DNA of 55,326 nt from an uncultured Anaerolineaceae bacterium (GTDB lineage Bacteria > Chloroflexota > Anaerolineae > Anaerolineales > E44-bin32): positions 5,284 through 60,609 of the forward strand of contig CAZEMA010000004.1 of NCBI GenBank assembly GCA_964513155.1, in the 5' to 3' direction. This document shows, in pieces, positions 16,260-42,423 of this stretch. The position numbers and the translations under genes are program-made. Every line of letters starts with the position of its first letter. The first letter of the stretch is position 1. The notes below the pieces were generated by a model. It was not told the DNA's origin and made no database searches. It saw only the letters and a list, made by a program, of their open reading frames with translations.

Positions 16260-16841
16260 ATGCGAGAAAAGGCCCCATTCATGGCGGCAATCGCTCCCCT
16301 CGACAAGCGGATCGTGGATCTGTTGATGGAAGATGGCCGCATGCCCTGCGCGGAGCTCGCGCGTCGCATTGGCGACGTCTCCGAGCGAACGGTCCGCTAT
16401 CGGCTTGACCGGATGGTTCGGCAAGGGCTCCTGCGACTGGTGGCGATTCCGAACCCTAAGGCTCTCGGCTACTCCGTGATCGCCGACGTGTTCCTGGAGG
16501 TCGAGCCAGGGGCCATCCTCGAGGTTGCTCGCAAAATGGCGGAGTATGAGTGCGTATCCTATGTTGGGTGCTCGATGGGGGACGTCGACGTAAGCATCCA
16601 GGTTGTGGCCCACGACAATGACGAGGTCTACGCCTTTGTCACCGAAGTGGTGGCCAATGTCCCTGGGGTCCGCAAGACCACGACCTTGATCGTTCCCAGG
16701 ATCGTCAAAGACGTCTACCAATGGCAAATACCGCCCTCGGCTTGCACCGACGCCGCCGTCGCCACGGTTCGCCAGATTGAGATGCCGCAAGAGAGCCGGC
16801 CGGCAGCGAGCTCTCCTTTGCTGCCGGCGCGGCGCCAGTGA
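16260..16841 (+). CDS. Lrp/AsnC-family transcriptional regulator
   Basis: LDKRIVDLLMEDGRMPCAELARRIGDVSERTVRYRLDRMVRQGLL is the HTH, followed by a RAM-like domain. The gene is divergent from hom. The start is ambiguous (16245, 16260 or 16281). Confidence 0.8.
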   Translation: MREKAPFMAAIAPLDKRIVDLLMEDGRMPCAELARRIGDVSERTVRYRLDRMVRQGLLRLVAIPNPKALGYSVIADVFLEVEPGAILEVARKMAEYECVSYVGCSMGDVDVSIQVVAHDNDEVYAFVTEVVANVPGVRKTTTLIVPRIVKDVYQWQIPPSACTDAAVATVRQIEMPQESRPAASSPLLPARRQ

Positions 16842-17175
16842 AAGTCTGCTGCGGTCGCAGACCGTCCGCTGATACCAGGGTCGGCTTCTCGCAGGCGGAA
16901 GCTCACTGAGACTTCCCCTCGCGTCCGGGAAACCTCTCTCGGTGAGGAGTCCGGCGCCTGCCCCGGTCGAGCATGGCGCGTCGCCGTGACCGACAATGGG
17001 CTGCCACGAGGGCGACATGGGTGTCGCTTGACGACGGTGGCCTCGATGCGGTGCTTTCCATCCTTGGGGTGCAGCCTTTACCCTATCGGTGAACCAGGGT
17101 CAATGAGTTGCTGCGAGTGTGCCGCCCTGACGGCAGAACCGGGCTGACTCTCGGCATGCAAGGCGGAGGTGTCAC

Positions 17176-18288
17176 ATGGCCCAGGAATGTGCCGTAGAAC
17201 TACGCCGGGTGACTAAGCGCTTTGCCGACGTGGCGGCGGTGCGCCACGTGTCTCTCCAGGTGCCGGACGGCGAGTTCTTCTCCCTTCTCGGGCCCAGCGG
17301 TTGCGGCAAGACCACCACGCTTCGCCTGATTGGCGGCTTCGAGATGCCGACGGAGGGCGAGATCTGCATCGGAGGCGAACCCCAGGGATACAAGCCTCCG
17401 TACCAGCGTCCCGTCAACACCGTCTTCCAGAACTACGCGCTGTTTCCACACATGAATGTCTACGAAAACGTAGCCTTCGGTCTGGAGATGCAGAAGGTGC
17501 CCGGTGACGAGGCGCGTCGCCGTGTGGCGGAGGCGCTGGAGATGGTTCGCCTATCCGGTCTTGACAAGAGGAGGCCGAATCAACTCTCAGGTGGCCAGCA
17601 ACAGCGCGTGGCACTCGCCCGAGCACTCGTCAACCATCCGAAGGTGCTTCTGCTGGACGAACCACTCGGGGCGCTTGATCTCAAGCTTCGGAAGGCGATG
17701 CAGCTAGAACTAAAGGCTTTGCAGGAGAGAGTGGGGATCACTTTCGTCTACGTGACTCACGACCAGGAAGAAGCTCTGACGATGTCCGATCGCATCGGCG
17801 TCATGTGTCAAGGAGAGCTGCTGCAAGTGGGGACGGCCCTCGAGGTCTATGAGTCACCCCAGAGCCGTTTTGTGGCGGATTTCATCGGCGACTCCAACTA
17901 CCTGGTAGGGGATGTGCTGTTGGTCGATCAGGGCGTTGCCGAGGTGGCACTGGCCCCGGGTGTTCGAGTGAGGGCGCCCGCAGCCCCCGATGTGCGTCAG
18001 GGAAAGCGGGCCAGCGTCACCTTCCGGCCCGAGAAGATACACATCGATGTGGCGCCTGATCCGGCATCGAACCAGTTGACGTGCGTGGTTACGGATGTGG
18101 TCTACACAGGCTCGAACACAACCTACGTCGTGGCATTTCGGGATGCCCCCCGGATCATGGTTCGTCAGCTCAATGAGGAGGCCTCGGTGGGGCCTGCAGC
18201 TTCTCCTGGTGATCAGGTGATGATCTCCTGGCCAATAGGGGTGAGCAAAGCCTTCCTCGAAGAGGGAGGAGGGGACCGAGCGCGATGA
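17176..18288 (+). CDS. potA: Spermidine/putrescine-type ABC transporter ATPase
   Basis: It has Walker A (GPSGCGKTT), the signature LSGGQQQRVALARAL, Walker B (LLLDEPL) and a C-terminal TOBE-like domain. Confidence 0.9.
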   Translation: MAQECAVELRRVTKRFADVAAVRHVSLQVPDGEFFSLLGPSGCGKTTTLRLIGGFEMPTEGEICIGGEPQGYKPPYQRPVNTVFQNYALFPHMNVYENVAFGLEMQKVPGDEARRRVAEALEMVRLSGLDKRRPNQLSGGQQQRVALARALVNHPKVLLLDEPLGALDLKLRKAMQLELKALQERVGITFVYVTHDQEEALTMSDRIGVMCQGELLQVGTALEVYESPQSRFVADFIGDSNYLVGDVLLVDQGVAEVALAPGVRVRAPAAPDVRQGKRASVTFRPEKIHIDVAPDPASNQLTCVVTDVVYTGSNTTYVVAFRDAPRIMVRQLNEEASVGPAASPGDQVMISWPIGVSKAFLEEGGGDRAR

Positions 18289-19142
18289 TCGAGGCTCTGC
18301 GGCGTCGTCCCGGCCTGAGGGCAGGCGTGTTGATCCTGCCGGCAACAGCCTTCCTCGTAGTGTTCTTTGTGGCGCCGCTCTTCATCGTCCTGGCATACAG
18401 CTTTCTCGAGCGGGGGACGTACGGCGGCGTGGTCTGGGTGTTCACCCTGGAGAACTTCCGCCGCGCTATTGATCCCCTATACCTCAGAACCTTCCTGCGT
18501 TCAGCCTACATTGCAGGCGCGACAACCCTCATCACACTGGTCCTCGGTTATCCCTTCGCCTACTTCATCGCCACTCGCAGGCCCCAAACGCGCAATGTCT
18601 TGCTGCTGGCTTTGATGATCCCGTTTTGGACGAACTTCTTGATTCGGACCTATGCCTGGCTCACGATTCTTCGGACCAACACCGGATTGCTCAACGCGGC
18701 GCTCCTGTCTCTCGGCCTGATCAGGGAGCCACTGCCCCTTTTCGGCAACGACTTTGCCATCCTTCTGGGCCTTGTATATGGCTGGTTTCCCGACATGGTG
18801 CTACCGCTCTTCGCCGCGATCAGCCGTCTCGATTCATCCCTTCTTGAAGCAGCTCGGGATCTCTATGCCGGCAATCGTCAGGTCTTCTTGCGCGTGGTCT
18901 GGCCTCTGACGTTGCCGGGCGTGGCGGCAGGTTCGATCCTCGTGTTCATCCCTTCCCTGGGGGCCTTCATCACCCCGACCCTGCTGGGCGGTGGGAGATC
19001 CCTGATGATTGGCAACATCATCAACAATCAGTTCCTGGCTGCTCACGACTGGCCATTCGGCGCCGCACTTTCGACGATCATGATAGGGATCATGTTGATA
19101 GCGACAATCGGCTACCTCCGTATCGTCCGAAGGCAGGGCTAG
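18285..19142 (+). CDS. potB: ABC transporter permease (PotB-like)
   Basis: There is an ATGA overlap with potA. The protein has six predicted hydrophobic segments and the EAA-loop-like motif LLEAARDLYAG. Confidence 0.85.
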   Translation: MIEALRRRPGLRAGVLILPATAFLVVFFVAPLFIVLAYSFLERGTYGGVVWVFTLENFRRAIDPLYLRTFLRSAYIAGATTLITLVLGYPFAYFIATRRPQTRNVLLLALMIPFWTNFLIRTYAWLTILRTNTGLLNAALLSLGLIREPLPLFGNDFAILLGLVYGWFPDMVLPLFAAISRLDSSLLEAARDLYAGNRQVFLRVVWPLTLPGVAAGSILVFIPSLGAFITPTLLGGGRSLMIGNIINNQFLAAHDWPFGAALSTIMIGIMLIATIGYLRIVRRQG

Positions 19143-20060
19143 GTGGCTCTTCTCGCGCGATCCGTCGGACCGAGGAAGAACGGCGCATACAGCGGGCGCT
19201 GGGGTGCTTTCCGCGCCCGCTTGGGTGGACGCCTGCTATCCGCACATGGCATTGCGCTTTTCGCTTTCCTCTATCTCCCGATCGTGGTCCTTGTCGTCTT
19301 CTCTTTCAACGACTCGCGCTTCTTGGCTCAGTGGGAGGGGGTAACCCTGCGGTGGTACGGCCAACTGCTTGACGACAGTCAAGTCGCCGTAGCTCTCTGG
19401 AATAGCCTCTTCGTCGCCGTGGTCTCCACGCTCATCTCGACGGTCATCGGCACACTGGCGGCGATGGCGATGGAGCGCTATGACTTCAGGGGCAAGCTGG
19501 CCGCGGACATCATGCTCTACCTACCCATCATCCTGCCTGACATCGCTCATGCCATCATGCTGCTGGTCTGGTTCAACATGGTTGGCATCGGTTTCACGCC
19601 CTGGCGGGTAGACCTCTTCGGCCTGCGGCTGGCAGTCCCCTACTCGGTGATCATTGGCCATGCCTCCTTCAACGTTTCTTTCGTCGCCATCATCGTGAGG
19701 GCACGCCTTGCCAACATGGACCGCACGCTTGAAGAGGCGGCTCAGGATCTCTACGCCAACACTTGGCGGACCTTTCGCCGCGTAACACTGCCCATGATGA
19801 TGCCTGGGATCATTGCCGGCGCGCTTCTGGCCTTCACCCTGTCGTTGGACGACTTCGTCATCACTTTCTTCACTAGCGGTGCTGGTTTCAACACGTTGAC
19901 GGTTTACGTGTTTAGTCTGGTCAAGAGAGGGGTCACCCCCAAGATCAATGCCATTTCGACGCTCATGGTGGCTTTCTCGCTCATCCTGGTTCTGATCTCT
20001 CGGATCCTGCAGAAGAGAGGAGGAGGGGAGGGAGGCGAGGTGCCAATCGCGACTTTCTGA
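19143..20060 (+). CDS. potC: ABC transporter permease (PotC-like)
   Basis: A GTG follows immediately after the potB stop. The EAA-like motif is LEEAAQDLYAN. The exact start is uncertain. Confidence 0.8.
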   Translation: MALLARSVGPRKNGAYSGRWGAFRARLGGRLLSAHGIALFAFLYLPIVVLVVFSFNDSRFLAQWEGVTLRWYGQLLDDSQVAVALWNSLFVAVVSTLISTVIGTLAAMAMERYDFRGKLAADIMLYLPIILPDIAHAIMLLVWFNMVGIGFTPWRVDLFGLRLAVPYSVIIGHASFNVSFVAIIVRARLANMDRTLEEAAQDLYANTWRTFRRVTLPMMMPGIIAGALLAFTLSLDDFVITFFTSGAGFNTLTVYVFSLVKRGVTPKINAISTLMVAFSLILVLISRILQKRGGGEGGEVPIATF

Positions 20061-20131
20061 GGGTCCGGGGCTCTCCGCGAGATGGGCTTGTCTATCGCGA
20101 CGGCCCATGAGTTTGACAGAAGGAGGAGAAG

Positions 20132-21226
20132 ATGAAAACGCGTTGGATTGCTCTCGGGGTGCTGACGTCGATGTTCCTCTCGGCGTGCGCTGGCGCCACG
20201 GCGACACCAGAAGTCTTGGCCACAGAGCCTCTCACCATCCAGCCGGCGAGCGAGATACAACTCTTCAACTGGTCGGAGTATATAGACCCCGTGATCTACG
20301 ATCTGTTCAGGCAAGAATACGGGATCACCGTGGTTGAGAGCAACTTCGCCAGCAACGAGGAGATGCTCGCCAAGCTTCAGGGTGGAGGCGCGGGCTATGA
20401 CCTAATCGTCCCTTCAGACTACTATGTCGGCATCATGATCGAAGAGGGGATGCTTGCCGAGCTGGATCACTCCGTGATCACCAACCTGGGTAACCTGGCG
20501 GAGCGCTTCCAGACCGTGCCCTACGATCCGGGGAACAGGTACTGCGTACCCTACCAGTGGGGGACTTCGGGCATAGGCTACGACTCCTCGGTCATGGATG
20601 CGCCCCAGAGCTGGTCTGTGCTCTTCGATCCGGATCCCAATGCTGTCTACTACGGGCGCACAACCATGCTCGACGACCCGCGTGAAGCTTTTGCGGCCGC
20701 GCTCATCTACCTTGGCTACAGCGCCAACACAACGGACGACGCCCAACTGGAAGAGGCCATGCAGGCGCTGATCCGGGCCAAGGCGGCACTCTTGGGCTAC
20801 GATAGCGACCAGTTTGAGGACCTCCTGGCGGCAGGCGAGACCGTCATGGCTCACGGCTGGAACGGGGACATCCTGATGGGGCAAGCAGAGTCCGAGGACA
20901 TTAGTTACACCATCCCCCAAGAGGGCGGTGTGGTGTGGATTGACAACATGTGCATCCCGAACACGGTCCCCCCGGAACGCAAACTCGCAGCCGAGATGTT
21001 CATCAACTTCATCCTCCGGCCCGACATTGGGGCAATGATCTCAGAGTTCACATACTATGCCACTCCCAATGAAGCGGCCGAGGCCTACTTGGATGAGGAG
21101 TTCCTTTCAGACCCAATAGTCTACCCGCCGGCAGATGTGCTCGAGAGGCTTCAGTACATCGAGCCTCTGGGAGAATACGAGTCGGTCTACCAACGGATGT
21201 GGGACGAGGTCAAAGCCGCCCAATAG
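20132..21226 (+). CDS. potD: PotD/PotF-family periplasmic polyamine-binding lipoprotein
   Basis: A GAAGGAGGAG SD lies upstream. The lipobox is FLSACAG. NWSEYIDP...YDLIVPSDYY...PYQWGTSGIGY is typical of the PotD/PotF family. Confidence 0.85.
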   Translation: MKTRWIALGVLTSMFLSACAGATATPEVLATEPLTIQPASEIQLFNWSEYIDPVIYDLFRQEYGITVVESNFASNEEMLAKLQGGGAGYDLIVPSDYYVGIMIEEGMLAELDHSVITNLGNLAERFQTVPYDPGNRYCVPYQWGTSGIGYDSSVMDAPQSWSVLFDPDPNAVYYGRTTMLDDPREAFAAALIYLGYSANTTDDAQLEEAMQALIRAKAALLGYDSDQFEDLLAAGETVMAHGWNGDILMGQAESEDISYTIPQEGGVVWIDNMCIPNTVPPERKLAAEMFINFILRPDIGAMISEFTYYATPNEAAEAYLDEEFLSDPIVYPPADVLERLQYIEPLGEYESVYQRMWDEVKAAQ

Positions 21227-21410
21227 CCCACACCTAAGTGCTTGCCGTCGGTGGACGCGATCTGGTGGGCGCTACCGGGGCCCTTGCTGAGGGACGGCGG
21301 CGCGCCCTTGAATCGATGGGAAACCCGTCGGGGCCTCCAAGCCTCGAAGCTGAACGCACACGGAGCAACAGCCGGACCCGCATCCACGGCTGCGAATGAG
21401 GAGGCACGCA

Positions 21411-22622
21411 ATGAGAACCCTATTGGTCGGCTCAGGAGGTGTTGGCGAGTCCGTCGCGGTTCTTGCCCAAGACCTCCCCTGGCTCAACAGGGTTGTGCTG
21501 GCAGACATCAGCGCCAAGCGGTTGCGCGAGGTTAAGGGGAAGCTCCACAATCCGAAGAAGTTCTCGCTTGAGCCAGTCAACGCCGAGGACAAGAACCAGG
21601 TCGCCGAGCTGGCCAAGAAGCATAAGGTGGACCTGATCCTGAATGCCGTCGATCCTTTGTTCAACGAGAGTATCTTCAACGCCGCCTTCCAGTACGGGTG
21701 CACCTACATGGACTTGGCGATGACGCTCTCATCGCCGCACCCAACCGATCCTTTCCACCAGTGCGGCATCAAGCTCGGTGACTACCAGTTCGAGCGCGCC
21801 CAGAAATGGGAGAAAAGGGGCCTGCTCGCGCTCCCAGGAATGGGCGTGGAGCCCGGCTTGTCTGACGTTTTCGCCAAGTATGCCGAGAAGCACCTCTTCG
21901 ACGAGATCGATGAGATCGGCGTACGTGACGGGGGCAATCTGGAAGTGCGCGGCTATGAGTTCGCCCCCAACTTCTCCATCTGGACCACGATCGAAGAGTG
22001 CCTGAACCCGCCCGTGATCTGGGAGAAGACCCGGGGATGGTACACCACCGAGCCCTTCTCCGAGGTCGAGGTCTTCGATTTCCCGGAGGGTATCGGGCCG
22101 CAGGAGTGCGTCAACGTCGAGCACGAAGAGGTCTTGCTCGTTCCCCGCTGGGTAAAGTGTAAGCGCGTCACCTTCAAGTACGGTCTCGGGGACAGATTCA
22201 TCCGCGTGCTCAAGACACTCAAGATGCTCGGCCTGGACAACAAGCACGCGATCGAGGTCAAGGGCGTCAAGGTCGCCCCGCGCGATGTGGTCGCCGCCTG
22301 TCTGCCAGACCCGGCGCACCTGGGAGACAAGATGTTCGGCCAGACCTGCGCCGGCACCTGGGTGAAGGGCAAGAAGGACGGCAAGCCGCGCCAGGTGTAC
22401 CTGTACCAGGTGGCCGACAACGAGACCTGCATGAAGAAGTACGGCGTTCAGGCTGTGGTCTGGCAGACGGCGGTCAACCCGATCATCGCCATGGAGCTGC
22501 TCGAGACCGGGGTTTGGAAGGGTAAGGGTGTGCTGGGGCCGGAAGCCTTCGACCCGGACCCGTTCCTGGAGCGGATGCCCAAATACGATTTCCCCTACGC
22601 GATCAAGGAGATGGCCCCCTGA
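21411..22622 (+). CDS. Saccharopine-dehydrogenase-family NAD(P) oxidoreductase (paralog 1)
   Basis: A GAGGAGG SD precedes the ATG at 21411. MRTLLVGSGGVGESVA is a Rossmann motif. The protein has long identity blocks with the ORF at 27912-29096 (DVFAKYAEKHLFDEIDEIG..., RGWYTTEPFSE..FDFPEGIGP). Confidence 0.75.
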   Translation: MRTLLVGSGGVGESVAVLAQDLPWLNRVVLADISAKRLREVKGKLHNPKKFSLEPVNAEDKNQVAELAKKHKVDLILNAVDPLFNESIFNAAFQYGCTYMDLAMTLSSPHPTDPFHQCGIKLGDYQFERAQKWEKRGLLALPGMGVEPGLSDVFAKYAEKHLFDEIDEIGVRDGGNLEVRGYEFAPNFSIWTTIEECLNPPVIWEKTRGWYTTEPFSEVEVFDFPEGIGPQECVNVEHEEVLLVPRWVKCKRVTFKYGLGDRFIRVLKTLKMLGLDNKHAIEVKGVKVAPRDVVAACLPDPAHLGDKMFGQTCAGTWVKGKKDGKPRQVYLYQVADNETCMKKYGVQAVVWQTAVNPIIAMELLETGVWKGKGVLGPEAFDPDPFLERMPKYDFPYAIKEMAP

Positions 22623-22733: not shown

Positions 22734-24092
22734 ATGCCGCAATCCCTGCACGATGCGCTTGAGTACTCGCACCAATGGTTGGGCATTATCAAGAACCCTC
22801 AGGTCTCCCAGGAGGAAGGCAAGCGGATCATCGAAGAGGCGACTCTCAACTTCGCCGAGTACTTCAACAAAGGCTGGCTCGAGTACCGCAAGTCGGTGAC
22901 GGAGGCCGGCGATTGGGCGGCGACCGAGTGGACCGGCCACGGGGCTTCCTTCCAGGATGTGCTCGGGCGCGAATTCATTGACTGCCTCGGCGGCTTCGGG
23001 ATGCTCAATCACGGCTGGAGCCATCCCGAGATCGTGGCCGCCGTCCAGGCCCAGTTGCTGCGGACCCCGATGCCCACCCAGGAGTTGATCGATCCGCTCC
23101 GGGGCGTGCTGGCCCGGTTGATGGCCCAGATCACCCCCGGAGACATCCGCTACAGCTTCTTTGCGGCCAGCGGCACCGAGGCAATCGAAGGGGCGATCAA
23201 GCTGGCCAAGATGCACACCCGCAAGCCCGGCTTCATCGCCGCACTCCAGGCCTTCCATGGCAAGACAATGGGGTCGCTCAGCATGCTCGGCAAGGCCGAG
23301 TACCGTGAGCCTGCGGGGATACTCTATGGCGGCCCGGTCTACCACGTCCCCTTCGGTGACGCCGAGGCGGTCGAGCGGCAACTCGATGCCTGCCGCACGG
23401 TCGGCGTGGGGATCGCGGCGGTGCTGATGGAGCCGATTCAGGGCGAGGCCGGTGCCATCGTACCCCCCGACGATTTCTGGCCCCGCATCCGCCAGGCCAC
23501 CCGCGAGCATGGCGCCCTGCTGATCGCCGACGAGGTTCAGACTGGCCTCGGCCGGACCGGAAAGCTCTGGGGTGTCGATCACTGGCAGGTCGAGCCCGAC
23601 ATCCTGGCCGTGGCCAAGTCGCTCGGCGGCGGGATCATGCCGGTCAGCGCCTTCTGCTCGACCGAGGAGATCTGGCAGTGCATGATGACACCCAACCCGT
23701 TCATTCACACCAACACGACGGGCGGCGGGGCTCTGGCGTGCAGCGCGGCGATCGCCTCGATCCACGTTACGCTGCGCGATCGGCTCTGGGAGCAGGCCGC
23801 CGCCAAGGGTGAGTTCCTGATGCCGAAGCTGCAGGCCCTGGCCGAGCGCTTCCCGGCCGTCTACCGAGGCATCACCGGCAAGGGCCTGCTCATCGGACAG
23901 CACTTCCGGACGCCGCAGATCGGCTATCGCGTCGCCGCCGGATTGTTCCGGCGCGGCATCCTGGTCTCGGGCAATCTCACCAGCGCCCACACCGTGCGGA
24001 TCGAGCCCCCGCTGGTGATCACCTACGAGCAGCTTGAGGCCGTGCTGGACCGCCTGGAGGACGCCGTGGCGGAGGTCCATCGGAGCCTGTGA
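22734..24092 (+). CDS. Class-III PLP aminotransferase, putrescine-aminotransferase-like
   Basis: The N-terminus (AEYFNKGWLEYRKSV...) resembles PatA/YgjG. DEVQTGLGRTGKLWG and AKSLGGG (Schiff-base Lys region) are also present. Confidence 0.75.
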   Translation: MPQSLHDALEYSHQWLGIIKNPQVSQEEGKRIIEEATLNFAEYFNKGWLEYRKSVTEAGDWAATEWTGHGASFQDVLGREFIDCLGGFGMLNHGWSHPEIVAAVQAQLLRTPMPTQELIDPLRGVLARLMAQITPGDIRYSFFAASGTEAIEGAIKLAKMHTRKPGFIAALQAFHGKTMGSLSMLGKAEYREPAGILYGGPVYHVPFGDAEAVERQLDACRTVGVGIAAVLMEPIQGEAGAIVPPDDFWPRIRQATREHGALLIADEVQTGLGRTGKLWGVDHWQVEPDILAVAKSLGGGIMPVSAFCSTEEIWQCMMTPNPFIHTNTTGGGALACSAAIASIHVTLRDRLWEQAAAKGEFLMPKLQALAERFPAVYRGITGKGLLIGQHFRTPQIGYRVAAGLFRRGILVSGNLTSAHTVRIEPPLVITYEQLEAVLDRLEDAVAEVHRSL

Positions 24093-24176
24093 GGCCCGGC
24101 CGCAGGCAAGCCCAGCCGCAACCTTTCTCCCAGGGGATCCGCCGGCAGCGCTTTGGTCAGATGAATGGAGGCTTGT

Positions 24177-33857: not shown

Positions 33858-33896
33858 GGCTCGCAGGTGCGACCGTTGCGGACGCACCTGCGAGCC
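33858..33896 (+). terminator. Intra-operon 14-bp perfect hairpin between the SBP and permease genes
   Basis: ggctcgcaggtgcg-(11 nt)-cgcacctgcgagcc lies 21 nt after the SBP stop and 17 nt before the permease start. Confidence 0.5.
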
Positions 33897-33912
33897 ATGA
33901 TTTGGGGATGAC

Positions 33913-34953: not shown

Positions 34954-35914
34954 CGACGGCGGCGCCGTGCGGGACGCCAGGACCTCGGCCCAAAGGGCCC
35001 GCGATCGTGCCCTCGAATCCGAGCACCTCGGTTCAGACCGGGGGTCGTTGGTATGGCGCCGCTTCCGCAGTCACCCAGGGGCCGTTGTGGGCACGATGGT
35101 CCTGGCGGTCCTGATCCTCATGGTCCTGCTCGCGCCGGCGTTGCCCCACGACCCGGAGCTCTCGTCGATGTCCGAGCGGCTCCAGCCCCCCTCCTTGTCC
35201 CATCCTATGGGCACAGACGCGTTGGGCCGGGACCTGCTCACTCGCGTTCTGTATGGGGGGCGCATCTCGCTGTCGGTGGGTCTGATGGTCGTGGCGATCA
35301 CGCTGGTCATCGGGGTGCCCATCGGGGCCGTCACCGGCTACTTCGGTGGATGGATCGACGATGTTCTGATGCGGATCACGGACGCCGCCCTCAGTCTGCC
35401 GGCCATTCTCGTGCTCATCCTGCTGAGCGCCGTCCTGCAGGAGATCCCGGTGCCCTTCATCCAGCACAACAACGTGCTGATGATCGCCGTGGTGATTGGC
35501 TCCCTCTCCTGGATGACGGTCGCCCGTCTGGTGAGGGCCAGCTTCCTCACCTTCCGGGAAATGGACTTCGTCACCGCCGCCCGCTGCATTGGCGCGCCCA
35601 ACTTCCGGATCATGGCCCGACACATCCTGCCGAACGCGGTCGGCCCCATCGTGGTCGAATCCACGCTCGAGGTTGGCTACGCCATCATGGAGGAATCCGG
35701 ATTGAGCTTCCTGGGTTTCGGCATCCAACCCCCGACGCCCAGCTGGGGAAACCTGCTCAGCAACGCACAAGACCATCTCATTCGAGAACCCTGGCTGGCC
35801 ATCTTCCCCGGGTTGATGATCTTCCTGACGATCATCTCGGTCAACTACATCGGCGACGGGGTACGGGATGCATTCGATCCCTACAAGGTACTCAAGAAGA
35901 TCGGGCAAGTCTGA
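34946..35914 (+). CDS. ABC permease, DppC/OppC-like
   Basis: The ATG at 34946 overlaps the upstream stop by 8 nt. HPMGTDALGRDLLTRVLYG and FVTAARCIGA are DppC-family motifs. Confidence 0.85.
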   Translation: MSSDGGAVRDARTSAQRARDRALESEHLGSDRGSLVWRRFRSHPGAVVGTMVLAVLILMVLLAPALPHDPELSSMSERLQPPSLSHPMGTDALGRDLLTRVLYGGRISLSVGLMVVAITLVIGVPIGAVTGYFGGWIDDVLMRITDAALSLPAILVLILLSAVLQEIPVPFIQHNNVLMIAVVIGSLSWMTVARLVRASFLTFREMDFVTAARCIGAPNFRIMARHILPNAVGPIVVESTLEVGYAIMEESGLSFLGFGIQPPTPSWGNLLSNAQDHLIREPWLAIFPGLMIFLTIISVNYIGDGVRDAFDPYKVLKKIGQV

Positions 35915-35933
35915 GGTTCCCCACAGGTGAGAG

Positions 35934-37364
35934 ATGCAGACAGTGCTGCGAGTGCTCTCGGACGATGAGCGGTCCCAGGTTCATGAGAGGACGCTCGAGG
36001 TACTCTCCAAAACAGGCCTTCGGGTTGATTCCGTCCGGGCGCGCAAGATCCTGGCGGACGCCGGGGCCGACGTGGATGAGACTTCTCGGATTGTACGTTA
36101 CCCCAAGGACCTGGTCGAGCGCTGCCTCAGCTCCGCGCCCAGGAAGTTCAACTTGGGAGGGCGGCGGCCCCACTGGACCCTCCCCCTAAGCAAGGGGGAG
36201 TGCACGCTGGTTGCCGATGGGGAGGGGATGCAGGTCGTCGACGGCACACCACTCCAGCGGCGTGCGGCGACGCCAGACGATTGGCTCAAGGCTACGCGGC
36301 TGATCGACGCCTTGGATGAGGTCGGCGTCTACTGGCGCATGGTGACAAGCGGCCTGGCCGGCCAATCGTCGGGAGACCTGGTCGCCTATTGGCGTAAGGT
36401 GTTCGGCAACTTCTCCAAGCATATCCAGGAGGGCAACGAAGATCCGGACCAAGTCCACTGGACCCTCGAGGTCTTGCAGGTCGTGTTTGGCGACCGGGCC
36501 ACCATCAAGCGCCTGCGGCCGGTCTCGTTCCTGCTCTGCCCCCTGTCGCCGCTCATCCTCCAGGGTGCGCCCGTCGATGCCTATCTGGAGACACTGGACT
36601 GGGGGATCCCCCTGGCCATCATGCCCATGCCTCTGATGGGGGCAACTGCGCCGGCAAGCCTGATCTCGACCCTCGTCTTGGCCAACACAGAGGCACTGGC
36701 GGTTCTGTGTTTGGCGCAGACGGCAGACCCGGGGACGCCCTGCATCTACGCGCCGGTCCCCGGTCTGGTTAACCCACGGACGGGCCGGTACAACGGCGGC
36801 GAGGTCGAACACGCTCTTCTCGGCGCGGCCGTGGCCGAGATGGGCGGCCACTACGGCCTGCCGGTCGAGACGGCGACCGGCGGCACCGATCAGCCCATTC
36901 CCGGCCTGCAGGCCGCCTACGAGCGCGCCATCAACTGGACGCTGCCGGTCTTGGCCTGGCCCGACATCCTGGTCGGCCCGGGCATGCTCAGCGGCTCGAC
37001 GGTCCTCTCGTATGAGCAGATGGTCATCGATGTGGAGATCTTCCGGCGATGCCGGCGGCTCCGCCAGGGGATCAACACCGAGCCGAAACGCTGGCTGGAG
37101 GACGTGCTGGCAGCCGTCGGCGCGGGTGGCAACTTCCTCGCCCAGCGCACCACTCGGGACGCCCTACGGAAGAACGAATGGTATATCAGCCGACTCGGTT
37201 TCCACGACACCTACGAGCAATGGGAAGCGCTCGACAGGCCATATATCCTGGCGGAAGCCCGCGAACGCGTTGATCAGTTCCTGGCGAACCGCGAGTCGCT
37301 ACCCCTGGATGATCGCGCAGAGCGCGAGCTCGATCGGATCGAGCGTCAGGCCCGGATGGCCTGA
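35934..37364 (+). CDS. MttB-superfamily methyltransferase, non-pyrrolysine type, paralog B1
   Basis: The protein is 476 aa. The N-terminus is LSDDERSQVHERTLEVLSKTGLRV, and MPMPLMGATAP is present. It is much more divergent from A1/A2. Confidence 0.75.
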   Translation: MQTVLRVLSDDERSQVHERTLEVLSKTGLRVDSVRARKILADAGADVDETSRIVRYPKDLVERCLSSAPRKFNLGGRRPHWTLPLSKGECTLVADGEGMQVVDGTPLQRRAATPDDWLKATRLIDALDEVGVYWRMVTSGLAGQSSGDLVAYWRKVFGNFSKHIQEGNEDPDQVHWTLEVLQVVFGDRATIKRLRPVSFLLCPLSPLILQGAPVDAYLETLDWGIPLAIMPMPLMGATAPASLISTLVLANTEALAVLCLAQTADPGTPCIYAPVPGLVNPRTGRYNGGEVEHALLGAAVAEMGGHYGLPVETATGGTDQPIPGLQAAYERAINWTLPVLAWPDILVGPGMLSGSTVLSYEQMVIDVEIFRRCRRLRQGINTEPKRWLEDVLAAVGAGGNFLAQRTTRDALRKNEWYISRLGFHDTYEQWEALDRPYILAEARERVDQFLANRESLPLDDRAERELDRIERQARMA

Positions 37365-37390: not shown

Positions 37391-38839
37391 TTGGACGTAC
37401 AGCTGCAGGTGCTGTCTGAGGCGGAACGGGAACGCGTCCACAGGGAAAGCCTGCGGATCCTGAGCGAGGTTGGCGTCCGCTTCCACGGTGACAAGGCCTT
37501 GGGGATTCTGGAGACTCACGGCGCCAAGGTCTCCCGAGAGCAGAAGCTGGCCAGGATCCCCCAGGAGTTGGTCAGCCTAGCCCTGGCAACTGCCCCCAAG
37601 TCCTTCGTGTTGCAGGCCAGGAATCCCGATTTGAGTTTCTCGCTCCCCTCGGCCTTCCCGGGCTACGGCATGGATGGGACGTGCGCCTTTGCCGTTGACT
37701 TCGAGACCGGGGAGAGGCGCTACGGAACCACCAAGGACATCCGCAACGCCTTACGCGTCTTCCAGGCGCTGGATCTGGCCGTGATGGCCTGGTCGCCCAC
37801 GTGTGCCTCGGACAAGCCGGCCAACGCCAGGCCCCTGCACGAGTTCTTCGGCATGCTGCGGCACTGCTCCAGGCACGGCCAGCACGAACTCCACCGCGTC
37901 GAGCAGGTGCCCTACCTCATCGCCGGTCTTAAGGCCATCCTGGGCAGCGAGGACGCCATCAAGGCGAAGAAGATCTGCTCCCTGATCTACTGCCCTGTGG
38001 CCCCTCTGGTCCACGATGGGCAGATGCTGGACGCCTATCTCGAACTGGGCGAGTTCGAGTTGCCCGTGATGATCATGCCCATGCCGGTTACCGGAACCAC
38101 CGGCCCCGCCAGCCTATTCTCCAACATCTGCCTGGCGAATGCTGAAACGCTCTCGGCGATCGTCGTCTTCCAGCTTGCCCACCCCGGCCGACACTTGATC
38201 TACAGCGATGCGGTCGGCACAATGGACTTCGCCACGGGCGGCTTCCTGGCCGGCGCGCCGGAGACGGCGCTCCAGGCGACCGGTCTCGTTGCCATGGGCC
38301 GTCACTACAACCTCCCGACGACGTCCACCGGCTGTTCGGCCGACGCCAAGGAACCCGGGGCGCAGGCTGTCCTGGAGAAGGTGCTCACGACGCTGCCCTG
38401 CGTCTTGGCCGGCTCGGATATGATCATTGGGATCGGCTTGATCGAGTGCAGCCAGACCCTTGTCCTGGAGCAGATCGTCGTCGACAACGAGATCGGCCAC
38501 CTGTGCCAGCGCATACGCCAGGGGATTGACACCGACGAGAAAAGGAACCTGTTCGCAGACATTGCCCAGGTGGGTCCTGGCGGCAACTTCCTCAAGTCAA
38601 GGAGCACCCGCCAGGCCGCCCGCAGTGGTGAGTTCTCGCGCACGACGCTGGTGGATCGGCAACCCTACGAGGCCTGGGTCAAGCAGGGAATGCCATCGAT
38701 CTACACCCGGGCCAGGGAGAAGGTGCGGGCGATTCTGGAGGCTCCCCCTGTGGATCCCTTGCCCGAGGACGTATCTCATGAATTGGACGAGATCCTGCGC
38801 GTCGCCGACCGCGAGATCCCTGCGGAGGCCGGCGGGTAG
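37391..38839 (+). CDS. MttB-superfamily methyltransferase, non-pyrrolysine type, paralog B2
   Basis: A TTG start follows GAGGAGGAGGG. The protein is 482 aa. LSEAERERVHRESLRILSEVGVRF and MPMPVTGTTGP are present. Confidence 0.75.
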   Translation: MDVQLQVLSEAERERVHRESLRILSEVGVRFHGDKALGILETHGAKVSREQKLARIPQELVSLALATAPKSFVLQARNPDLSFSLPSAFPGYGMDGTCAFAVDFETGERRYGTTKDIRNALRVFQALDLAVMAWSPTCASDKPANARPLHEFFGMLRHCSRHGQHELHRVEQVPYLIAGLKAILGSEDAIKAKKICSLIYCPVAPLVHDGQMLDAYLELGEFELPVMIMPMPVTGTTGPASLFSNICLANAETLSAIVVFQLAHPGRHLIYSDAVGTMDFATGGFLAGAPETALQATGLVAMGRHYNLPTTSTGCSADAKEPGAQAVLEKVLTTLPCVLAGSDMIIGIGLIECSQTLVLEQIVVDNEIGHLCQRIRQGIDTDEKRNLFADIAQVGPGGNFLKSRSTRQAARSGEFSRTTLVDRQPYEAWVKQGMPSIYTRAREKVRAILEAPPVDPLPEDVSHELDEILRVADREIPAEAGG

Positions 38840-38962
38840 CCTCGGCGAACAACAACCGTTGGTGATTGCCAGCGCGCCCGCGAGGTTGCTCTGCCTTCTC
38901 TGCCCCGGCCCAAGAGGCGGACTACGGATACCGTCGGATCACCCGTTCCCTGAGGAGTGGAA

Positions 38963-40237
38963 ATGACGACAGACGCGATTTCGCACATCTCGCCGATCTG
39001 GCCCCGCAGCTGGACGCTCCTGGTCGACCATGGCCGCGGACCATACATCTACAGCACCGATGGCCGAGAATACCTCGACTTCACCTGCGGCATCGCCGTC
39101 ACGAATACCGGCCATTCTCACCCCCGGGTGGTTCAGGCGATCCAGGAGCAGGCCGCGCGGCTGATCCATGGCCAGGCGAATATCGTCATTCACCAGCCCA
39201 TGCTCCGCCTGGTCGAAGAGCTCCTGACCGTCGTGCCGACACAGCTGGACAGCTTCTTCTTCACCAATTCGGGCGCCGAAGCCGTTGAAGGGGCGGTCAA
39301 GCTGGCCCGCGCCGCGACGGGACGGCCGAACGTGATCGTCTTCCAGGGATCCTTCCACGGTCGCACCAACGCCACCATGGCCATGACCACTTCCAAGACG
39401 ATCTACCGGGCCGGCTACCAGCCGCTCGCCAGCGGTGTGTTTGTCGCTCCCTACCCGTACGCCTACCGTTTCGGCTGGGATGAGGAGACGACCCTTCACT
39501 TCTGCCTGCGCGAGCTCAAGATTCTCCTCAAGTCGCAAACGGCGCCGGAAGAAACCGCGGCCATTGTTGTCGAGCCCGTTCTGGGCGAAGGCGGCTATGT
39601 TGTCCCGCCGGACGGGTTCTTGCCAGTGCTCAGGGACCTTTGCGACCACTCTGGCATCCTGCTAGTTGCCGACGAGGTGCAAACGGGCTTTGGGCGGACC
39701 GGCAAGTGGTTCGCCGTCGAGCACAGTGGGGTCATCCCCGACATCCTCATCATGGCGAAGGGTATCGCCTCCGGGCTTCCTCTGGCCGGGCTGGCGGCTC
39801 GCGGGGAATTGATGCAGCGTTGGCCGCCGGGATCGCATGGCGGCACGTTCGGAGGCAACGTGGTTGCCTGCGCTGCCGCGGTGGCGACCATCCAGGTGAT
39901 CCGCGAGGAGCGGCTGGTGGAGAACGCCGCCCGGATGGGCGAAGTGCTTCTGGGCGGCTTGCGGCAGTTGCAGGCCGCGCACCCGGAGATTGGCGAGGTG
40001 CGCGGGCGTGGGCTAATGATCGCCAGCGAGTTCACCGATCCATCCGGCGAGCCCTGGACCGAGCGAGCCAAGGCCGCCGCCAAGGCCGCCTATGAGGAAG
40101 GGCTTCTCCTGCTCACCTGCGGCACCTACGACAATGTCGTCCGCTGGATCCCTCCGCTCGTCGTGAACGCCAGCCAGATTGAAGAGGCGTTGGCGAAGTT
40201 CGAGCGAGCCCTGGACCGAAGCCGGGTCTCCGCCTAG
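38963..40237 (+). CDS. Class-III PLP aminotransferase, 4-aminobutyrate aminotransferase-like
   Basis: The ATG lies 5 nt after GAGGAG. FTNSGAEAVEGAVKLAR, DEVQTGFGRTGKWFA and MAKGIASGLPL fit the GabT-like pattern. Confidence 0.8.
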   Translation: MTTDAISHISPIWPRSWTLLVDHGRGPYIYSTDGREYLDFTCGIAVTNTGHSHPRVVQAIQEQAARLIHGQANIVIHQPMLRLVEELLTVVPTQLDSFFFTNSGAEAVEGAVKLARAATGRPNVIVFQGSFHGRTNATMAMTTSKTIYRAGYQPLASGVFVAPYPYAYRFGWDEETTLHFCLRELKILLKSQTAPEETAAIVVEPVLGEGGYVVPPDGFLPVLRDLCDHSGILLVADEVQTGFGRTGKWFAVEHSGVIPDILIMAKGIASGLPLAGLAARGELMQRWPPGSHGGTFGGNVVACAAAVATIQVIREERLVENAARMGEVLLGGLRQLQAAHPEIGEVRGRGLMIASEFTDPSGEPWTERAKAAAKAAYEEGLLLLTCGTYDNVVRWIPPLVVNASQIEEALAKFERALDRSRVSA

Positions 40238-40483
40238 GCTTCCTTTAGGAGTCCACCATAGAATCAGCCTGCCCCGCCGTCTCCTCTACATCGGCCGGTT
40301 AGGTGGCTCCTGGGAGATTGATTGCGATCCGGTAACTCTCGACGGGAGAGACCTGGTTGACCTGGTCAAGGGGGTCTGCCAAGAGGGAGACCCGAAAGCC
40401 GCGCATCTTCCCTGCGCTCCAGTCCGGGAAGGCGATATCGCGGGATGTGGCACGGAACCGTTAGACCTGCCGAGGAGCTTAGG

Positions 40484-42193
40484 ATGAACTCTCGAGTGTG
40501 GCGCGCCGATGTCGCCAAGCGTACAGTGCAGACGGAAAGCGTACCAGCCGGCTGGGAACAGTGGGGGGGCCGGGGTCTCATCGCCCGGATCCTCCTGGAC
40601 GAAGTGCCTCCCACTTGCGACCCCCTCGGCCCTTTCAGCAAGCTGATCTGGGCACCCGGGCTGCTGGTTGGTCACATGGTCTCGTCGTGTGACCGTATCT
40701 CGATTGGAGGCAAGAGCCCGCTCACCGGGGGTGTCAAGGAGAGCAACGCCGGGGGCACGACCGGCCTGAAGATGGTCCGCCTGGGAATCAAGGCGCTGCT
40801 GCTCGAGGGCGACCTGGCCACCAACGGCTGGTGGTTGCTCCATCTCACCACCGAAGGCGGCCGCGTTGAAGCGGCAGACGATGTCGCCGGACTGGGGACC
40901 TACGAGGCGGCCAGCCGTCTCCTGGAGCGCTTCGGCTCCAAGGTGGGCCTGGCAGTGATCGGCCCGGCTGGGGAAATGCGCCTAGCGGCCGCGGGGGTCC
41001 TCAACCTCGACAAGGATCGGGAGCCCTCTCGCATTAACGGCCGAGGTGGACTGGGAGCGATTATGGGCGCCCGCCGGTTGAAGGCAATCATCATCGATGA
41101 CGCGGGCGGAGACAAGCCGCTGTTGGCCGATCCTGCGAGATTCGTCGCGGCCCAGAAGTACTTCACCCGGGAGCTGATGGCCCATCCCCAGACGGCGATC
41201 TACCGGGACTACGGCACGGCGGCGCTCGTCTCGACGGTCGAGGGCTTCGGCGGTCTGCCGACTCGTGGCTTTTCCTCCGGCCACTTCGAGGGCGCCGAGA
41301 ACATCAGCGGCGAAGCCATGCGGGACCTTCTCCTTTCGCGAGAGGCGCCCAGCGAGACCACCCACGCCTGCATGCCTGGATGCACGATTCGCTGCTCCAA
41401 TCGGGTGGGAAGCGCCAAGGGGGAGAAGATCGTCGCACCCCTCGAGTACGAGACGATCGGCCTGGTCGGCGCCAACCTGGGCTTCGACAACCTGGACGTT
41501 ATCGCCAGGCTCAATTGGGAACTCAACGACCTGGGACTGGACACGATCGAAACGGGGGCCGCGCTGGGAGTCGCGGCGCAGGCAGGTTATATGTCCTTTG
41601 GGGATTCTGAGAGCGTGATGGCTCTCCTCAACGAGATTCGCAGAGGCACACCGCTCGGCCGCCTCATCGGGAACGGCGCGGCCACCACCGGCCGCGTCCT
41701 GGGCGTCAGGCGTGTGCCGGCCGTCAAAGGGCAGGCGTGCGCGGCCTACGATCCCCGCGCCATCAAGGGTACCGGGGTGACCTACGCCACATCCCCTCAG
41801 GGCGCAGATCACACCGCCGGGCTGACCGTCAGGGCCAAGGTGGATCACCTCGATCCCAAGGGGCAGGCCGACCTCTCCCGGACCGCCCAGGTCAACATGG
41901 CCGGCTACGACACGCTGGGCGCCTGCATCTTCGCCGGCTTCGGTTTCGCCAAAGCCCCTGGCGCCATCCGCGACTTGCTCAATGGCCGCTACGGCTGGTC
42001 GGTCGGCGACGGGATCCTGCAAGAGCTCGGCCGCCAGACCCTGACGTGGGAGCGGACCTTCAACCGCCTCGCTGGCTTCGGCCCTGAAGACGATCGGATT
42101 CCCGAGTGGATGACCACCGAACCGCTCCCGCCGCACAACTCTGTCTTCGACGTTCCCAACGAAGACCTCGACGGGATCTTCGAATGGTCGTGA
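40484..42193 (+). CDS. aor: Tungsten/molybdopterin aldehyde:ferredoxin oxidoreductase (AOR family)
   Basis: The ATG follows GAGGAG. WGGRGLIARIL...DPLGP.SKLIWAPGLL.G......R.SIGGKSPLTGG..ESNAGG is the AFOR N-terminal signature. The C-terminal domain carries Cys motifs (HACMPGCTIRC). Confidence 0.85.
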   Translation: MNSRVWRADVAKRTVQTESVPAGWEQWGGRGLIARILLDEVPPTCDPLGPFSKLIWAPGLLVGHMVSSCDRISIGGKSPLTGGVKESNAGGTTGLKMVRLGIKALLLEGDLATNGWWLLHLTTEGGRVEAADDVAGLGTYEAASRLLERFGSKVGLAVIGPAGEMRLAAAGVLNLDKDREPSRINGRGGLGAIMGARRLKAIIIDDAGGDKPLLADPARFVAAQKYFTRELMAHPQTAIYRDYGTAALVSTVEGFGGLPTRGFSSGHFEGAENISGEAMRDLLLSREAPSETTHACMPGCTIRCSNRVGSAKGEKIVAPLEYETIGLVGANLGFDNLDVIARLNWELNDLGLDTIETGAALGVAAQAGYMSFGDSESVMALLNEIRRGTPLGRLIGNGAATTGRVLGVRRVPAVKGQACAAYDPRAIKGTGVTYATSPQGADHTAGLTVRAKVDHLDPKGQADLSRTAQVNMAGYDTLGACIFAGFGFAKAPGAIRDLLNGRYGWSVGDGILQELGRQTLTWERTFNRLAGFGPEDDRIPEWMTTEPLPPHNSVFDVPNEDLDGIFEWS

Positions 42194-42423
42194 CGGTCCG
42201 CCTCCTCACCGTCCTGCGGCGACAGACACCGGAGGGGATCGTCGACCGTCTGACGCTGGATTTGGCGGATGGTGCCACCGTGGCAACCGCGCTCGACCAT
42301 TTGGGCATCCGGGGGCAGGGCGATCTCATCCTGCTGGTGCTCAACGGCCGGCTGGTCTCGCCTGAGCAGGCCCTGGCCGATGGCGACGATCTGCGGCTGG
42401 TGCCTGCCATCTCGGGCGGCTGA
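42184..42423 (+). CDS. MoaD/ThiS-family ubiquitin-like sulfur-carrier protein
   Basis: The protein is 79 aa and ends in ...LRLVPAISGG*, a C-terminal Gly-Gly. Its start overlaps the AOR stop by 10 nt. Confidence 0.7.
   Translation: MVVTVRLLTVLRRQTPEGIVDRLTLDLADGATVATALDHLGIRGQGDLILLVLNGRLVSPEQALADGDDLRLVPAISGG

Follow-up and report, generated by a model that had tools for sequence, protein, structure and literature searches.

Two separately widespread gene modules, one predicted to cleave polyamines and one to harvest methyl groups, are joined in an Anaerolineae lineage

The stretch of DNA analysed here (the window, 55,326 nucleotides from an uncultured Anaerolineaceae bacterium) contains a 26-kb run of 21 intact plus-strand genes and one remnant, which the initial annotation read as a single amine-catabolism supercluster. 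Comparison with 167 related loci does not sustain that unity: the cluster consists of two separately widespread gene sets that have been joined in one Anaerolineae lineage. Module A comprises an Lrp-type regulator, a transporter, a carboxyspermidine dehydrogenase (CASDH)-family enzyme (SDH1), class-III aminotransferases and an aldehyde oxidiser, and occurs in many Anaerolineae genomes without MttB. The core of module B is a binding protein of the SBP_bac_5 family, two permeases and four orthologue groups of MttB-superfamily methyltransferases; it stands alone in most loci, and some copies also carry a corrinoid protein, an SDH1 paralogue (SDH2) or a pterin methyltransferase. On balance we lean towards a reading of these genes in which module A would cleave polyamines into C4 and C3 branches by an O2-independent, NAD(P)-dependent route, with methyl harvest by module B grafted onto it. 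The cluster belongs to a known kind of system, catabolic gene clusters, and both of its modules are widespread and so far uncharacterised by experiment. A search of the full-text literature (most subscription journals excluded) found neither module, nor their combination, described.

A listing of open reading frames (ORFs) together with Pfam and NCBIfam profile searches bears out the gene count and the gene families named in the initial annotation. The features of the cluster, all on the plus strand, are as follows.

16260-16841, plus: Lrp/AsnC-type regulator (Pfam AsnC_trans_reg, HTH_AsnC); the ORF opens with GTG at 16176 and the likely start is ATG 16260
17176-18288, plus: PotA, ATPase of a polyamine-type ABC importer (TIGR01187, 383.7 bits, above the cutoff of 355.6)
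18285-19142, plus: PotB permease (top NCBIfam match PotB, 259 bits, below the equivalog cutoff of 348)
19143-20060, plus: PotC permease (top NCBIfam match PotC, 244 bits, below the cutoff of 326)
20132-21226, plus: PotD-like polyamine-binding protein (SBP_bac_8; PDB matches)
21396-22622, plus: SDH1, NAD(P) enzyme of the carboxyspermidine dehydrogenase family (Sacchrp_dh_NADP, Sacchrp_dh_C)
22734-24092, plus: AT1, putrescine-aminotransferase-like, class III (NF008570, 569 bits, just under the cutoff of 612)
24165-25493, plus: AT2, omega-amino-acid (taurine/beta-alanine type) aminotransferase, class III (PRK06062, 548 bits, above the cutoff of 472)
25579-26889, plus: AT3, glutamate-1-semialdehyde-aminomutase (GSAM)-like transaminase, class III (HemL-like; PDB GSAM matches of about 300 bits)
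26899-27159, plus: remnant of a methylmalonate/malonate-semialdehyde dehydrogenase (MMSDH) of the CoA-acylating type, within the 372 bp that separate AT3 from the corrinoid protein
27262-27915, plus: corrinoid (B12-binding) protein, CoP (B12-binding, B12-binding_2)
27912-29096, plus: SDH2, paralogue of SDH1 (Sacchrp_dh), overlapping both CoP and MttB1 by 4 bp
29093-30544, plus: MttB1, MttB-superfamily methyltransferase of the type that lacks pyrrolysine (non-Pyl) (PF06253)
30575-32026, plus: MttB2 (PF06253), 52% identical to MttB1
32092-33837, plus: cluster-C (Opp/Dpp/Nik-type) solute-binding protein, SBP (SBP_bac_5)
33913-34953, plus: OppB-type permease (BPD_transp_1, BPD_transp_1_N)
34919-35914, plus: OppC-type permease (OppC_N, BPD_transp_1); the true start is perhaps 34946 or 34967
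35934-37364, plus: MttB3, non-Pyl paralogue (PF06253), 31-36% identical to the other three MttBs
37391-38839, plus: MttB4, non-Pyl paralogue (PF06253, 272 bits)
38957-40237, plus: AT4, 4-aminobutyrate (GABA)-aminotransferase-like, class III (PRK08117, 544 bits, just under 574; GABAtrnsam, 422 bits)
40445-42193, plus: AOR, a divergent aldehyde:ferredoxin oxidoreductase of 582 aa ('AORw'; AFOR_N, AFOR_C)
42184-42423, plus: small protein of the ThiS/MoaD family (PF02597), probable start ATG 42184, overlapping the AOR stop by 10 nt

Neighbouring genes of the cluster are separated by -35 to 372 bp; PotA/PotB, CoP/SDH2 and SDH2/MttB1 each overlap by 4 bp, and the wider spaces (334, 169, 372 and 207 bp) coincide with cassette borders. 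The last ORF (42106-42423) was considered as a remnant and rejected as such, being an intact ThiS/MoaD gene.

The separation of the modules is evident in two samples of loci. For the SDH side, an alignment of SDH2 homologues and SDH1 was used and one genome per species scanned, giving 80 loci with 10-kb flanks; for the MttB side, an MttB1 alignment against metagenome contigs gave 80 loci, with MttB1 orthologues of 68-76% identity. Exact-protein look-ups added 11 further loci. For annotation of all these loci the window proteins served as tblastn queries and leftover ORFs were clustered; recurrent unlabelled neighbour families were named through Pfam and NCBIfam, with several smaller recurrent clusters left unannotated. 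Within 10 kb, 43 of the 80 SDH loci have an AT1-, AT2- or AT4-type aminotransferase, 36 have an AOR or an aldehyde dehydrogenase (ALDH), 34 combine such an oxidiser with an aminotransferase, and 47 have a transporter (26 APC, 16 SSF, 13 with PotA and PotD). Any MttB at all is found at this distance in five. The MttB1-centred counts, restricted to the 21 loci of at least 12 kb, give the complementary picture: all four MttBs are present in 15 and the SBP_bac_5 binding protein in 18, while SDH and corrinoid protein occur in five each and any aminotransferase in a single locus.

The typical order of module A in Anaerolineae is Lrp, transporter, SDH1, a canonical AOR ('AORc'), AT4, and then AORw or an acylating ALDH, with AT1 and a trio formed by AT3, AT2 and MMSDH near this arrangement. 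AT4 is the most frequent neighbour of SDH1 (35/80 loci); orthologues of the Lrp regulator, at 59-71% identity, adjoin SDH1 in 31/80, and AT1 recurs in 24/80. The transporter is interchangeable between PotABCD, APC and SSF types, and the aldehyde oxidiser between AORc, AORw, MMSDH and acylating ALDH. Such exchange fits a catabolic module with fixed chemistry and swappable parts.

Module B is found within module A in eight contigs besides the window. The insertion site is identical in every locus that spans both flanks, lying 3' of MMSDH and 5' of AT4, and the fusion is limited to one Anaerolineae clade. CoP and MttB4 are the MttB element present in every locus of this clade that covers the position, and the SDH1 genes of the nested-form contigs group together in the SDH tree. 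A single insertion followed by differential loss would fit these observations. Gene order, whose conservation the initial annotation had proposed as a check, is kept in its nested form across one clade, with the modules mostly apart elsewhere; its recurrence in independent contigs counters a chance juxtaposition of genes. The nested loci, with their identity to the window, include the following.

L004 and L168 (one metagenome-assembled genome), 88% DNA identity: AOR and ThiS swapped, deletion in the MttB/importer region
L170, 81% (SDH2): truncated MttB between SDH2 and MttB4
L001/L002, 76%: in the place of PotABCD, genes for an APC permease, a metallophosphoesterase and a protein without assigned family
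L171, 73%: compact form, Lrp-APC-SDH1-AT1-CoP-SDH2-MttB1-MttB2-SBP-permease-permease-MttB3-MttB4
L135, 72% (MttB1): without SDH2; the contig ends upstream of MttB4
L169, 71% (MttB4): without SDH2
L085, 67% (MttB4): only CoP and MttB4 nested

Cassettes within the nested cluster are gained and lost quickly. The window and L168 form a continuous DNA alignment except at 40207-42853, with 42853 as the swap boundary: in L168 (3290-6510) AOR and ThiS are cleanly exchanged for two ALDH genes between flanks of 88% DNA identity, a recent non-orthologous cassette swap. In relatives, AOR is replaced or accompanied by MMSDH and by a CoA-acylating ALDH that matches best to SauS, the acylating sulfoacetaldehyde dehydrogenase; the position of ALDHs in the same slot agrees with the role of aldehyde oxidiser that the initial annotation had given to AOR. 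On the MttB side, L004 11406-11566 jumps from window position 29333 to 36798, removing most of MttB1, the whole of MttB2, the importer and most of MttB3. L170 9870-10929 has a similar join of the MttB1 start to the MttB3 end, with loss of MttB2, the binding protein and both permeases. Both deletions spare CoP, SDH2 and MttB4. The exchanges of AOR for ALDH, and of PotABCD for APC or SSF, are clear cases of non-orthologous displacement and useful for annotating these genomes.

The PotABCD cassette (17176-21226) has a GC content of 59.5%, against 64-66% in the rest of the cluster and its flanks. The relative L001, at 76% identity, lacks this cassette and has one with an APC permease there. PotABCD may be a recent acquisition. 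The three-gene cassette that replaces it beside SDH1/AT1 (L001 1359-4908; also L011, L022, L065 and L170) encodes an APC-family permease, a metallophosphoesterase and a protein of about 270-294 aa without Pfam match. L085 912-3137, within module A, carries an agmatine deiminase gene (PAD_porph) and a putrescine-carbamoyltransferase-like gene (OTCace), which link module A to agmatine and putrescine.

The nested arrangement can be explained in different ways. The two modules might be independent neighbouring operons, namely a polyamine/GABA catabolic set and an inserted quaternary-amine methyltransferase operon, with no metabolites in common. Their separation in most genomes, the coincidence of the larger gaps with cassette borders, the MttB4 orthologues that occur alone or with just a corrinoid protein, and a clade-restricted spread that fits a single insertion with vertical inheritance all point this way. 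However, the insertion has been kept at one site over about 30% protein divergence despite repeated internal deletions, which suggests that products of module B feed module A. There are also separate links between MttB sets and polyamine genes. The MttB cassette contains a CASDH-family paralogue in one of three places: ahead of the binding protein, between MttB2 and MttB3, or flanked by CoP and MttB1. PotABCD-like transporters adjoin the four MttBs in place of the Opp-like one in L108, L122 and L124, and AT3 and/or AT4 follow the MttBs in L088 and L093. The paralogue and the Pot-type transporters suggest that the substrates of module B are polyamine-like and that their products enter module A, and these repeated physical links narrow the candidate substrates. 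With both sides considered, fully independent operons seem to us somewhat unlikely.

A second explanation, that of the initial annotation, takes all 21 genes as one integrated pathway for one substrate class, for example N-methylated polyamines, in which the MttBs demethylate, the SDHs cut, and the aminotransferases and AOR finish. The arrangement of all genes on one strand with short gaps, the overlaps that run from CoP through SDH2 to MttB1, and the retention of the nested arrangement from 93% to about 70% identity would be expected of such a pathway, as would the paralogues and Pot-like transporters just described. It is at odds with the great majority of loci, in which the modules lie apart, with the loss of SDH2, MttB1-3 and the importer in close relatives where the rest persists, and with the swappability of PotABCD and AOR; moreover, no MttB-superfamily enzyme is known for demethylation of secondary or tertiary polyamine nitrogen. 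We regard full integration as unlikely. The reading that we favour lies in a polyamine-cleaving module A that received module B once, between MMSDH and AT4, in one Anaerolineae clade.

The assignment of module A to polyamine chemistry is supported by SDH1 and SDH2. These proteins are 60% identical and fall in separate clades of the SDH tree; the SDH1 clade is accompanied by aminotransferases and AOR or ALDH, and in the SDH2 clade seven of 13 members are MttB-linked and three stand in tandem with SDH1 inside module A. Their nearest solved structures in a PDB search are 4ina, 4rl6, 8deb and 8h4z (for SDH1 the best are 4ina, 4rl6 and 8deb), which are actual or proposed carboxy-polyamine dehydrogenases of the CASDH branch. 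Of these, 8deb is a carboxyspermidine dehydrogenase, and 4ina and 4rl6 have been argued to be misannotated CASDHs (PMC10413350). Both proteins carry a GxGxxG Rossmann NAD(P) site (GSGGVG in SDH1) and a His-Glu-Glu triad, at residue 243 in SDH1 and 227 in SDH2, which aligns with the HEE of 4ina and is invariant or nearly so over 20 SDH homologues. An acidic residue is also kept at the position aligned with Glu188 of BfCASDH. The triad (H228-E229-E230 in BfCASDH) is central to the CASDH branch and absent in saccharopine reductase and lysine 6-dehydrogenase (PMC10413350). Fold, domains, GxGxxG site, triad and secondary-amine C-N chemistry on polyamines are thus features in common with CASDH/CANSDH and CAPADH (PMC10413350, PMC10599626), and on these features we assign SDH1 and SDH2 to the CASDH/CANSDH/CAPADH branch.

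Databases label the homologues 'saccharopine dehydrogenase (NAD+, L-lysine-forming)', and the Pfam domains are of the Sacchrp_dh type, as would be expected if SDH1 and SDH2 were ordinary saccharopine/lysine-pathway dehydrogenases in a cluster that degrades lysine or methyl-lysine. We reject this identity because the His-Glu-Glu triad is kept and because of the nearest structures, among which there is no lysine 6-dehydrogenase; a profile search also found no lysine-ketoglutarate reductase of the AlaDH type in the cluster. A lysine pathway is hardly credible here, and the initial annotation was right to place the SDH-like proteins among the secondary-amine enzymes of polyamine metabolism. SDH1 and SDH2 represent a branch that is new among the polyamine C-N dehydrogenases and is set in a catabolic neighbourhood. 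The idea that SDH2 is an obligate partner of the MttB set was also discarded, given its presence in only five of the 21 long MttB1 loci and its absence from L169, L135 and L085.

The other genes of module A can be arranged into a predicted route. The importer combines an ATPase of the polyamine subfamily, two permeases and a binding protein of the PotD/PotF type, as expected of a PotABCD system; PotB, PotC and PotD are best matches yet fall under the E. coli-based equivalog cutoffs of NCBIfam. The top PDB matches of PotD are all polyamine binders (7xjm, 226 bits; E. coli PotD 1pot, 218; PotF, about 180), and it scores better against PotD than against PotF. PotABCD would import spermidine or putrescine, and SDH1, working in the oxidative direction with NAD(P)+, would convert the secondary amine into a diamine and an amino-aldehyde. 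In the C4 branch, AT1 would turn putrescine into 4-aminobutanal, AOR would oxidise this to GABA, AT4 would yield succinate semialdehyde and AOR succinate; in relatives the last step would fall to the acylating ALDH, giving succinyl-CoA. In the C3 branch, 3-aminopropanal or diaminopropane would be converted by AT3 and AOR to beta-alanine and by AT2 to malonate semialdehyde, which MMSDH would take to acetyl-CoA in relatives. Secondary-amine cleavage is the sole step without a conventional enzyme, and SDH1 is the one constant, family-appropriate candidate for it.

AT2 has as its top PDB match a taurine:2-oxoglutarate aminotransferase (6jix, 378 bits). AT3 exceeds the equivalog cutoff of the guanitoxin transaminase GntE (NF041362, 581 against 525 bits). 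The rest of the guanitoxin pathway is absent around AT3, and automated annotation would probably misname it. The database names 'GntE', 'saccharopine dehydrogenase, L-lysine-forming' and 'trimethylamine methyltransferase' are probably misleading for the genes of this cluster.

The predicted order of steps, and the homologous class-III aminotransferases, are those of the putrescine/GABA route (YgjG/SpuC, aminobutyraldehyde dehydrogenase, GabT, GabD) and the beta-alanine route (BauA, BauC/MMSDH), and relatives of module A also carry MMSDH and an acylating semialdehyde dehydrogenase. The difference is that the aldehyde steps are here assigned to a ferredoxin-linked AOR and not to NAD(P)-dependent ALDHs. 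Spermidine cleavage elsewhere is carried out by an FAD/haem spermidine dehydrogenase, by an amine oxidase or through gamma-glutamylation, whereas here it is assigned to an NAD(P) dehydrogenase. The breakdown of spermidine-type polyamines by strict anaerobes is poorly understood, and Anaerolineae are abundant in digesters and anoxic sediments. Module A provides a specific candidate for such a pathway, open to testing, and perhaps a new function for enzymes whose family has so far been linked to biosynthesis alone.

AOR contains both domains of the AFOR family and four Cys ligands for a [4Fe-4S] cluster, features that place it in this family; the sequence does not tell the tungsten named in the initial annotation from molybdenum. 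Its PDB matches are 9mqx (240 bits), 8c0z and 1aor. It shares both domains, the four ligands and an adjacent ThiS/MoaD-like gene with tungsten AORs (P. furiosus 1aor; Aromatoleum 8c0z); the Aromatoleum aor operon, too, includes a MoaD-like gene. The window enzyme differs in being shorter, in having no adjacent genes for electron-transfer subunits and in its ligand spacing, which in AOR and its orthologues is Cx3Cx3C plus a distal Cys (C309, C313, C317, C494) instead of the canonical Cx2Cx3C. AORw is about 50 residues shorter than, and about 28% identical to, the AORc that is usually beside it in relatives, and is always paired with a ThiS/MoaD gene, the same pair being found in L085 and L169.

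In L085, L170 and L135 a complete MMSDH stands where the window has only the remnant. Three-frame translation of the window remnant indicates an internal deletion that leaves about 20 N-terminal and about 72 C-terminal codons in different frames; by tblastn the C-terminal piece is 82% identical to residues 415-486 of an ALDH from L048 (ALDHa), which itself scores 529 bits against TIGR01722 (cutoff 448.5). Since MMSDH is deleted, either AOR would substitute for it in the window or the C3 branch would be decaying.

Several points weigh against this account of the cluster. The loss of MMSDH just described removes an enzyme of the proposed C3 branch, and the modules are usually apart, so that their adjacency could be inherited without functional coupling. 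Scans for promoters and terminators gave counts at or below shuffle expectation and do not define transcription units. The cognate methyl-corrinoid:tetrahydrofolate (THF) methyltransferase, RamA and a second ABC ATPase are all absent from the window; as the initial annotation had stated for the last two, PotA is its sole ABC ATPase and no RamA-type domain was found among the window ORFs scanned with profiles. The substrates known for the MttB superfamily are quaternary amines or trimethylamine, whose demethylation gives compounds that aminotransferases do not use, a difficulty for the feeding of module A by module B. Genes of the SDH1 clade often stand by themselves, with no module gene nearby in 12 of the 80 loci, and it is the neighbouring genes, and only these, that point to an oxidative, catabolic role. 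Every characterised member of the CASDH branch that we know of is biosynthetic and uses aspartate semialdehyde.

This last point leads to a further alternative, in which SDH1 and SDH2 would work reductively, joining an amino-aldehyde (from an aminotransferase) or aspartate semialdehyde to a diamine to form spermidine, homospermidine or a carboxy-polyamine. Among characterised enzymes the nearest to them, CASDH and CAPADH, do serve biosynthesis (PMC10413350, PMC10599626), and the catalytic triad is retained. Actinomycetota loci hold APC-SDH1-AT3-like genes only, and a homoserine dehydrogenase gene lies divergently upstream in the window, a neighbour that is however not conserved in other loci. 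SDH1 and SDH2 reach 219.7 and 193.7 bits against the carboxynorspermidine synthase equivalog NF043000, far from its cutoff of 800. A carboxyspermidine decarboxylase (PLP-dependent, of the Orn/DAP/Arg decarboxylase fold), the partner enzyme of the known systems, was not found among the window ORFs scanned, nor was a family of this kind among the annotated recurrent neighbours, several smaller clusters of which are unannotated. The neighbours form instead a catabolic set of importers, GABA/beta-alanine-type omega-aminotransferases, MMSDH, acylating ALDH and AOR. This set implies an oxidative reaction, the reverse of that in the characterised enzymes, and a substrate for which the carboxyl group would be dispensable. 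In CAPADH the catalytic His and the nicotinamide are the sole contacts of the substrate carboxyl group, so binding residues do not decide whether SDH1 and SDH2 require a carboxylate. We consider a biosynthetic role very unlikely.

The sequences themselves show the gene families and catalytic motifs, the modularity and the exchange of cassettes, and that the proteins are not orthologues of MtgB, MttB or lysine-pathway SDHs. From gene content and context we infer which substrates both modules use, in which direction the SDH reaction runs and that module B is coupled to module A. The coherent O2-independent route of the initial annotation survives in its polyamine half, which remains the best reading of these genes; the idea of one co-conserved unit gives way to a lineage-specific fusion of two modules. 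A bolder form of the proposal combines a CASDH-family spermidine dehydrogenase running in reverse with AOR in a new O2-independent, complete mineralisation of polyamines, with the four co-conserved MttBs as the first members of their superfamily to act on N-methylated polyamines or omega-amino compounds, from which they would remove methyl groups stepwise so that the skeleton could enter the same pathway. We hold this version to be distinctly doubtful.

Within module B, CoP is the predicted methyl acceptor of the MttBs. It scores 218.4 bits against TIGR02370 (cutoff 215.3) and has the DxHxxG motif as DIHDIG at residue 103, as expected of a corrinoid protein cognate to a methyltransferase; against MtgC-specific models it reaches 236 bits, under the cutoff of 310. 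All four MttBs match PF06253 over its full length with 181.5, 193.3, 203.3 and 271.8 bits (gathering cutoff 25). They remain below the cutoff of the pyrrolysine-dependent MttB model TIGR02369 (324-373 against 525 bits), their ORFs are uninterrupted without in-frame UAG, and the pyrrolysine position holds Gly, Gly, Gly and, in MttB4, Ser. Module B would import an N-methylated amine, from which MttB1-4 would load methyl groups onto the corrinoid protein.

The characterised references available for comparison were MttB (7xcl) and MtgB (2qne), through PDB alignment. Each of the four proteins is 26-30% identical to M. barkeri MttB and D. hafniense MtgB (26-29% to MtgB; for MttB1, 29% and 26%, respectively), and identities among the four are 31-52%. 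Glycine betaine in MtgB is bound by Y97, R312, H348 and F356 (PMC13080624). None of the four orthologue groups keeps R312, which gives way to a conserved residue particular to each group (L/F, L, E/Q in MttB3, and S/T/G), an aromatic residue at the F356 position is found only in MttB1, and the alignment at Y97 and H348 is uncertain. The notion of four redundant MtgB copies was rejected on these identities, on the mutual distances and on the glycine-betaine contacts, which are not kept; in agreement with the initial annotation, the alignments place the four as non-redundant enzymes, none of them an orthologue of MtgB or MttB.

Comparison with the known non-Pyl MttB systems (MtgBCA, MtpB, MtcB, MtyB and MthBCA with MthK) reveals both shared and distinct traits. 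In all of them an MttB-family methyltransferase (MT1) stands beside a cognate corrinoid protein, and in several loci that contain module B only, a pterin-binding methyltransferase (MT2) directly follows MttB4. The kinase MthK, which prepares the MttB substrate in the choline system, is a precedent for a substrate-preparing accessory enzyme such as SDH2 (PMC12155760). Module B differs in its four co-conserved paralogues, in the missing MtgB contacts (PMC13080624), in an importer that is of Opp/Dpp type and not a betaine transporter, in having an SDH-family dehydrogenase as accessory enzyme, and in that the window does not hold a complete system of MT1, CoP, MT2 and RamA. Genes for the methyl-corrinoid:THF methyltransferase, a reductive activase and the ABC ATPases of module B would lie in other parts of the genome; in L118, L125 and L129 the MttB set has ABC ATPase genes on its flanks. 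PDB matches of the binding protein are weak (at most 82 bits) and non-diagnostic for the ligand. New substrates of the MttB superfamily are actively sought, and four distinct MttBs that occur widely together with an Opp-type importer give this work a well-defined target.

The sole pterin-binding protein of the window (1212-2135) is AcsE-like, that is, similar to the methyl-THF:corrinoid/iron-sulfur protein methyltransferase (226 bits against a cutoff of 259). It is doubtful as the cognate MT2, being AcsE-like, 25 kb upstream and about 30% identical to the MttB4-linked MT2 of relatives. It follows a P-loop ATPase of the CbiA/ParA family, and this pair of genes (375-2135) may mark the border of a Wood-Ljungdahl cluster and offer a candidate methyl-corrinoid sink. 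In the module B loci L092, L109 and L146 the MttB family is strongly expanded, with six or seven paralogues next to an Lrp-like regulator and a corrinoid protein. Seven loci, L113 (9489-10247) among them, share an opposite-strand gene of the amidinotransferase fold that weakly matches arginine deiminase and dimethylarginine dimethylaminohydrolase; its place in L113 is just past the MttB4/pterin-methyltransferase end of the module.

The cluster is flanked by housekeeping genes: upstream, on the minus strand, the divergent homoserine dehydrogenase, a HAD hydrolase, Maf and PBP2, and downstream two deoxynucleoside kinases, holB, DUF6391 and holA. Searches of the whole window with Rfam (at gathering thresholds) and ARAGORN returned no RNA family, no tRNA and no cobalamin or other riboswitch. 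One further feature lies at the cluster boundary.

42439-42459, plus: terminator-like hairpin directly 3' of ThiS, from a scan whose hairpin count is below shuffle expectation

This hairpin is weak evidence for the 3' end of the cluster. Further downstream, an ORF of 340 aa on the minus strand (49176-50198) contains only partial FtsK/SpoIIIE domains and may be a fragment or the product of miscalled ORF boundaries.

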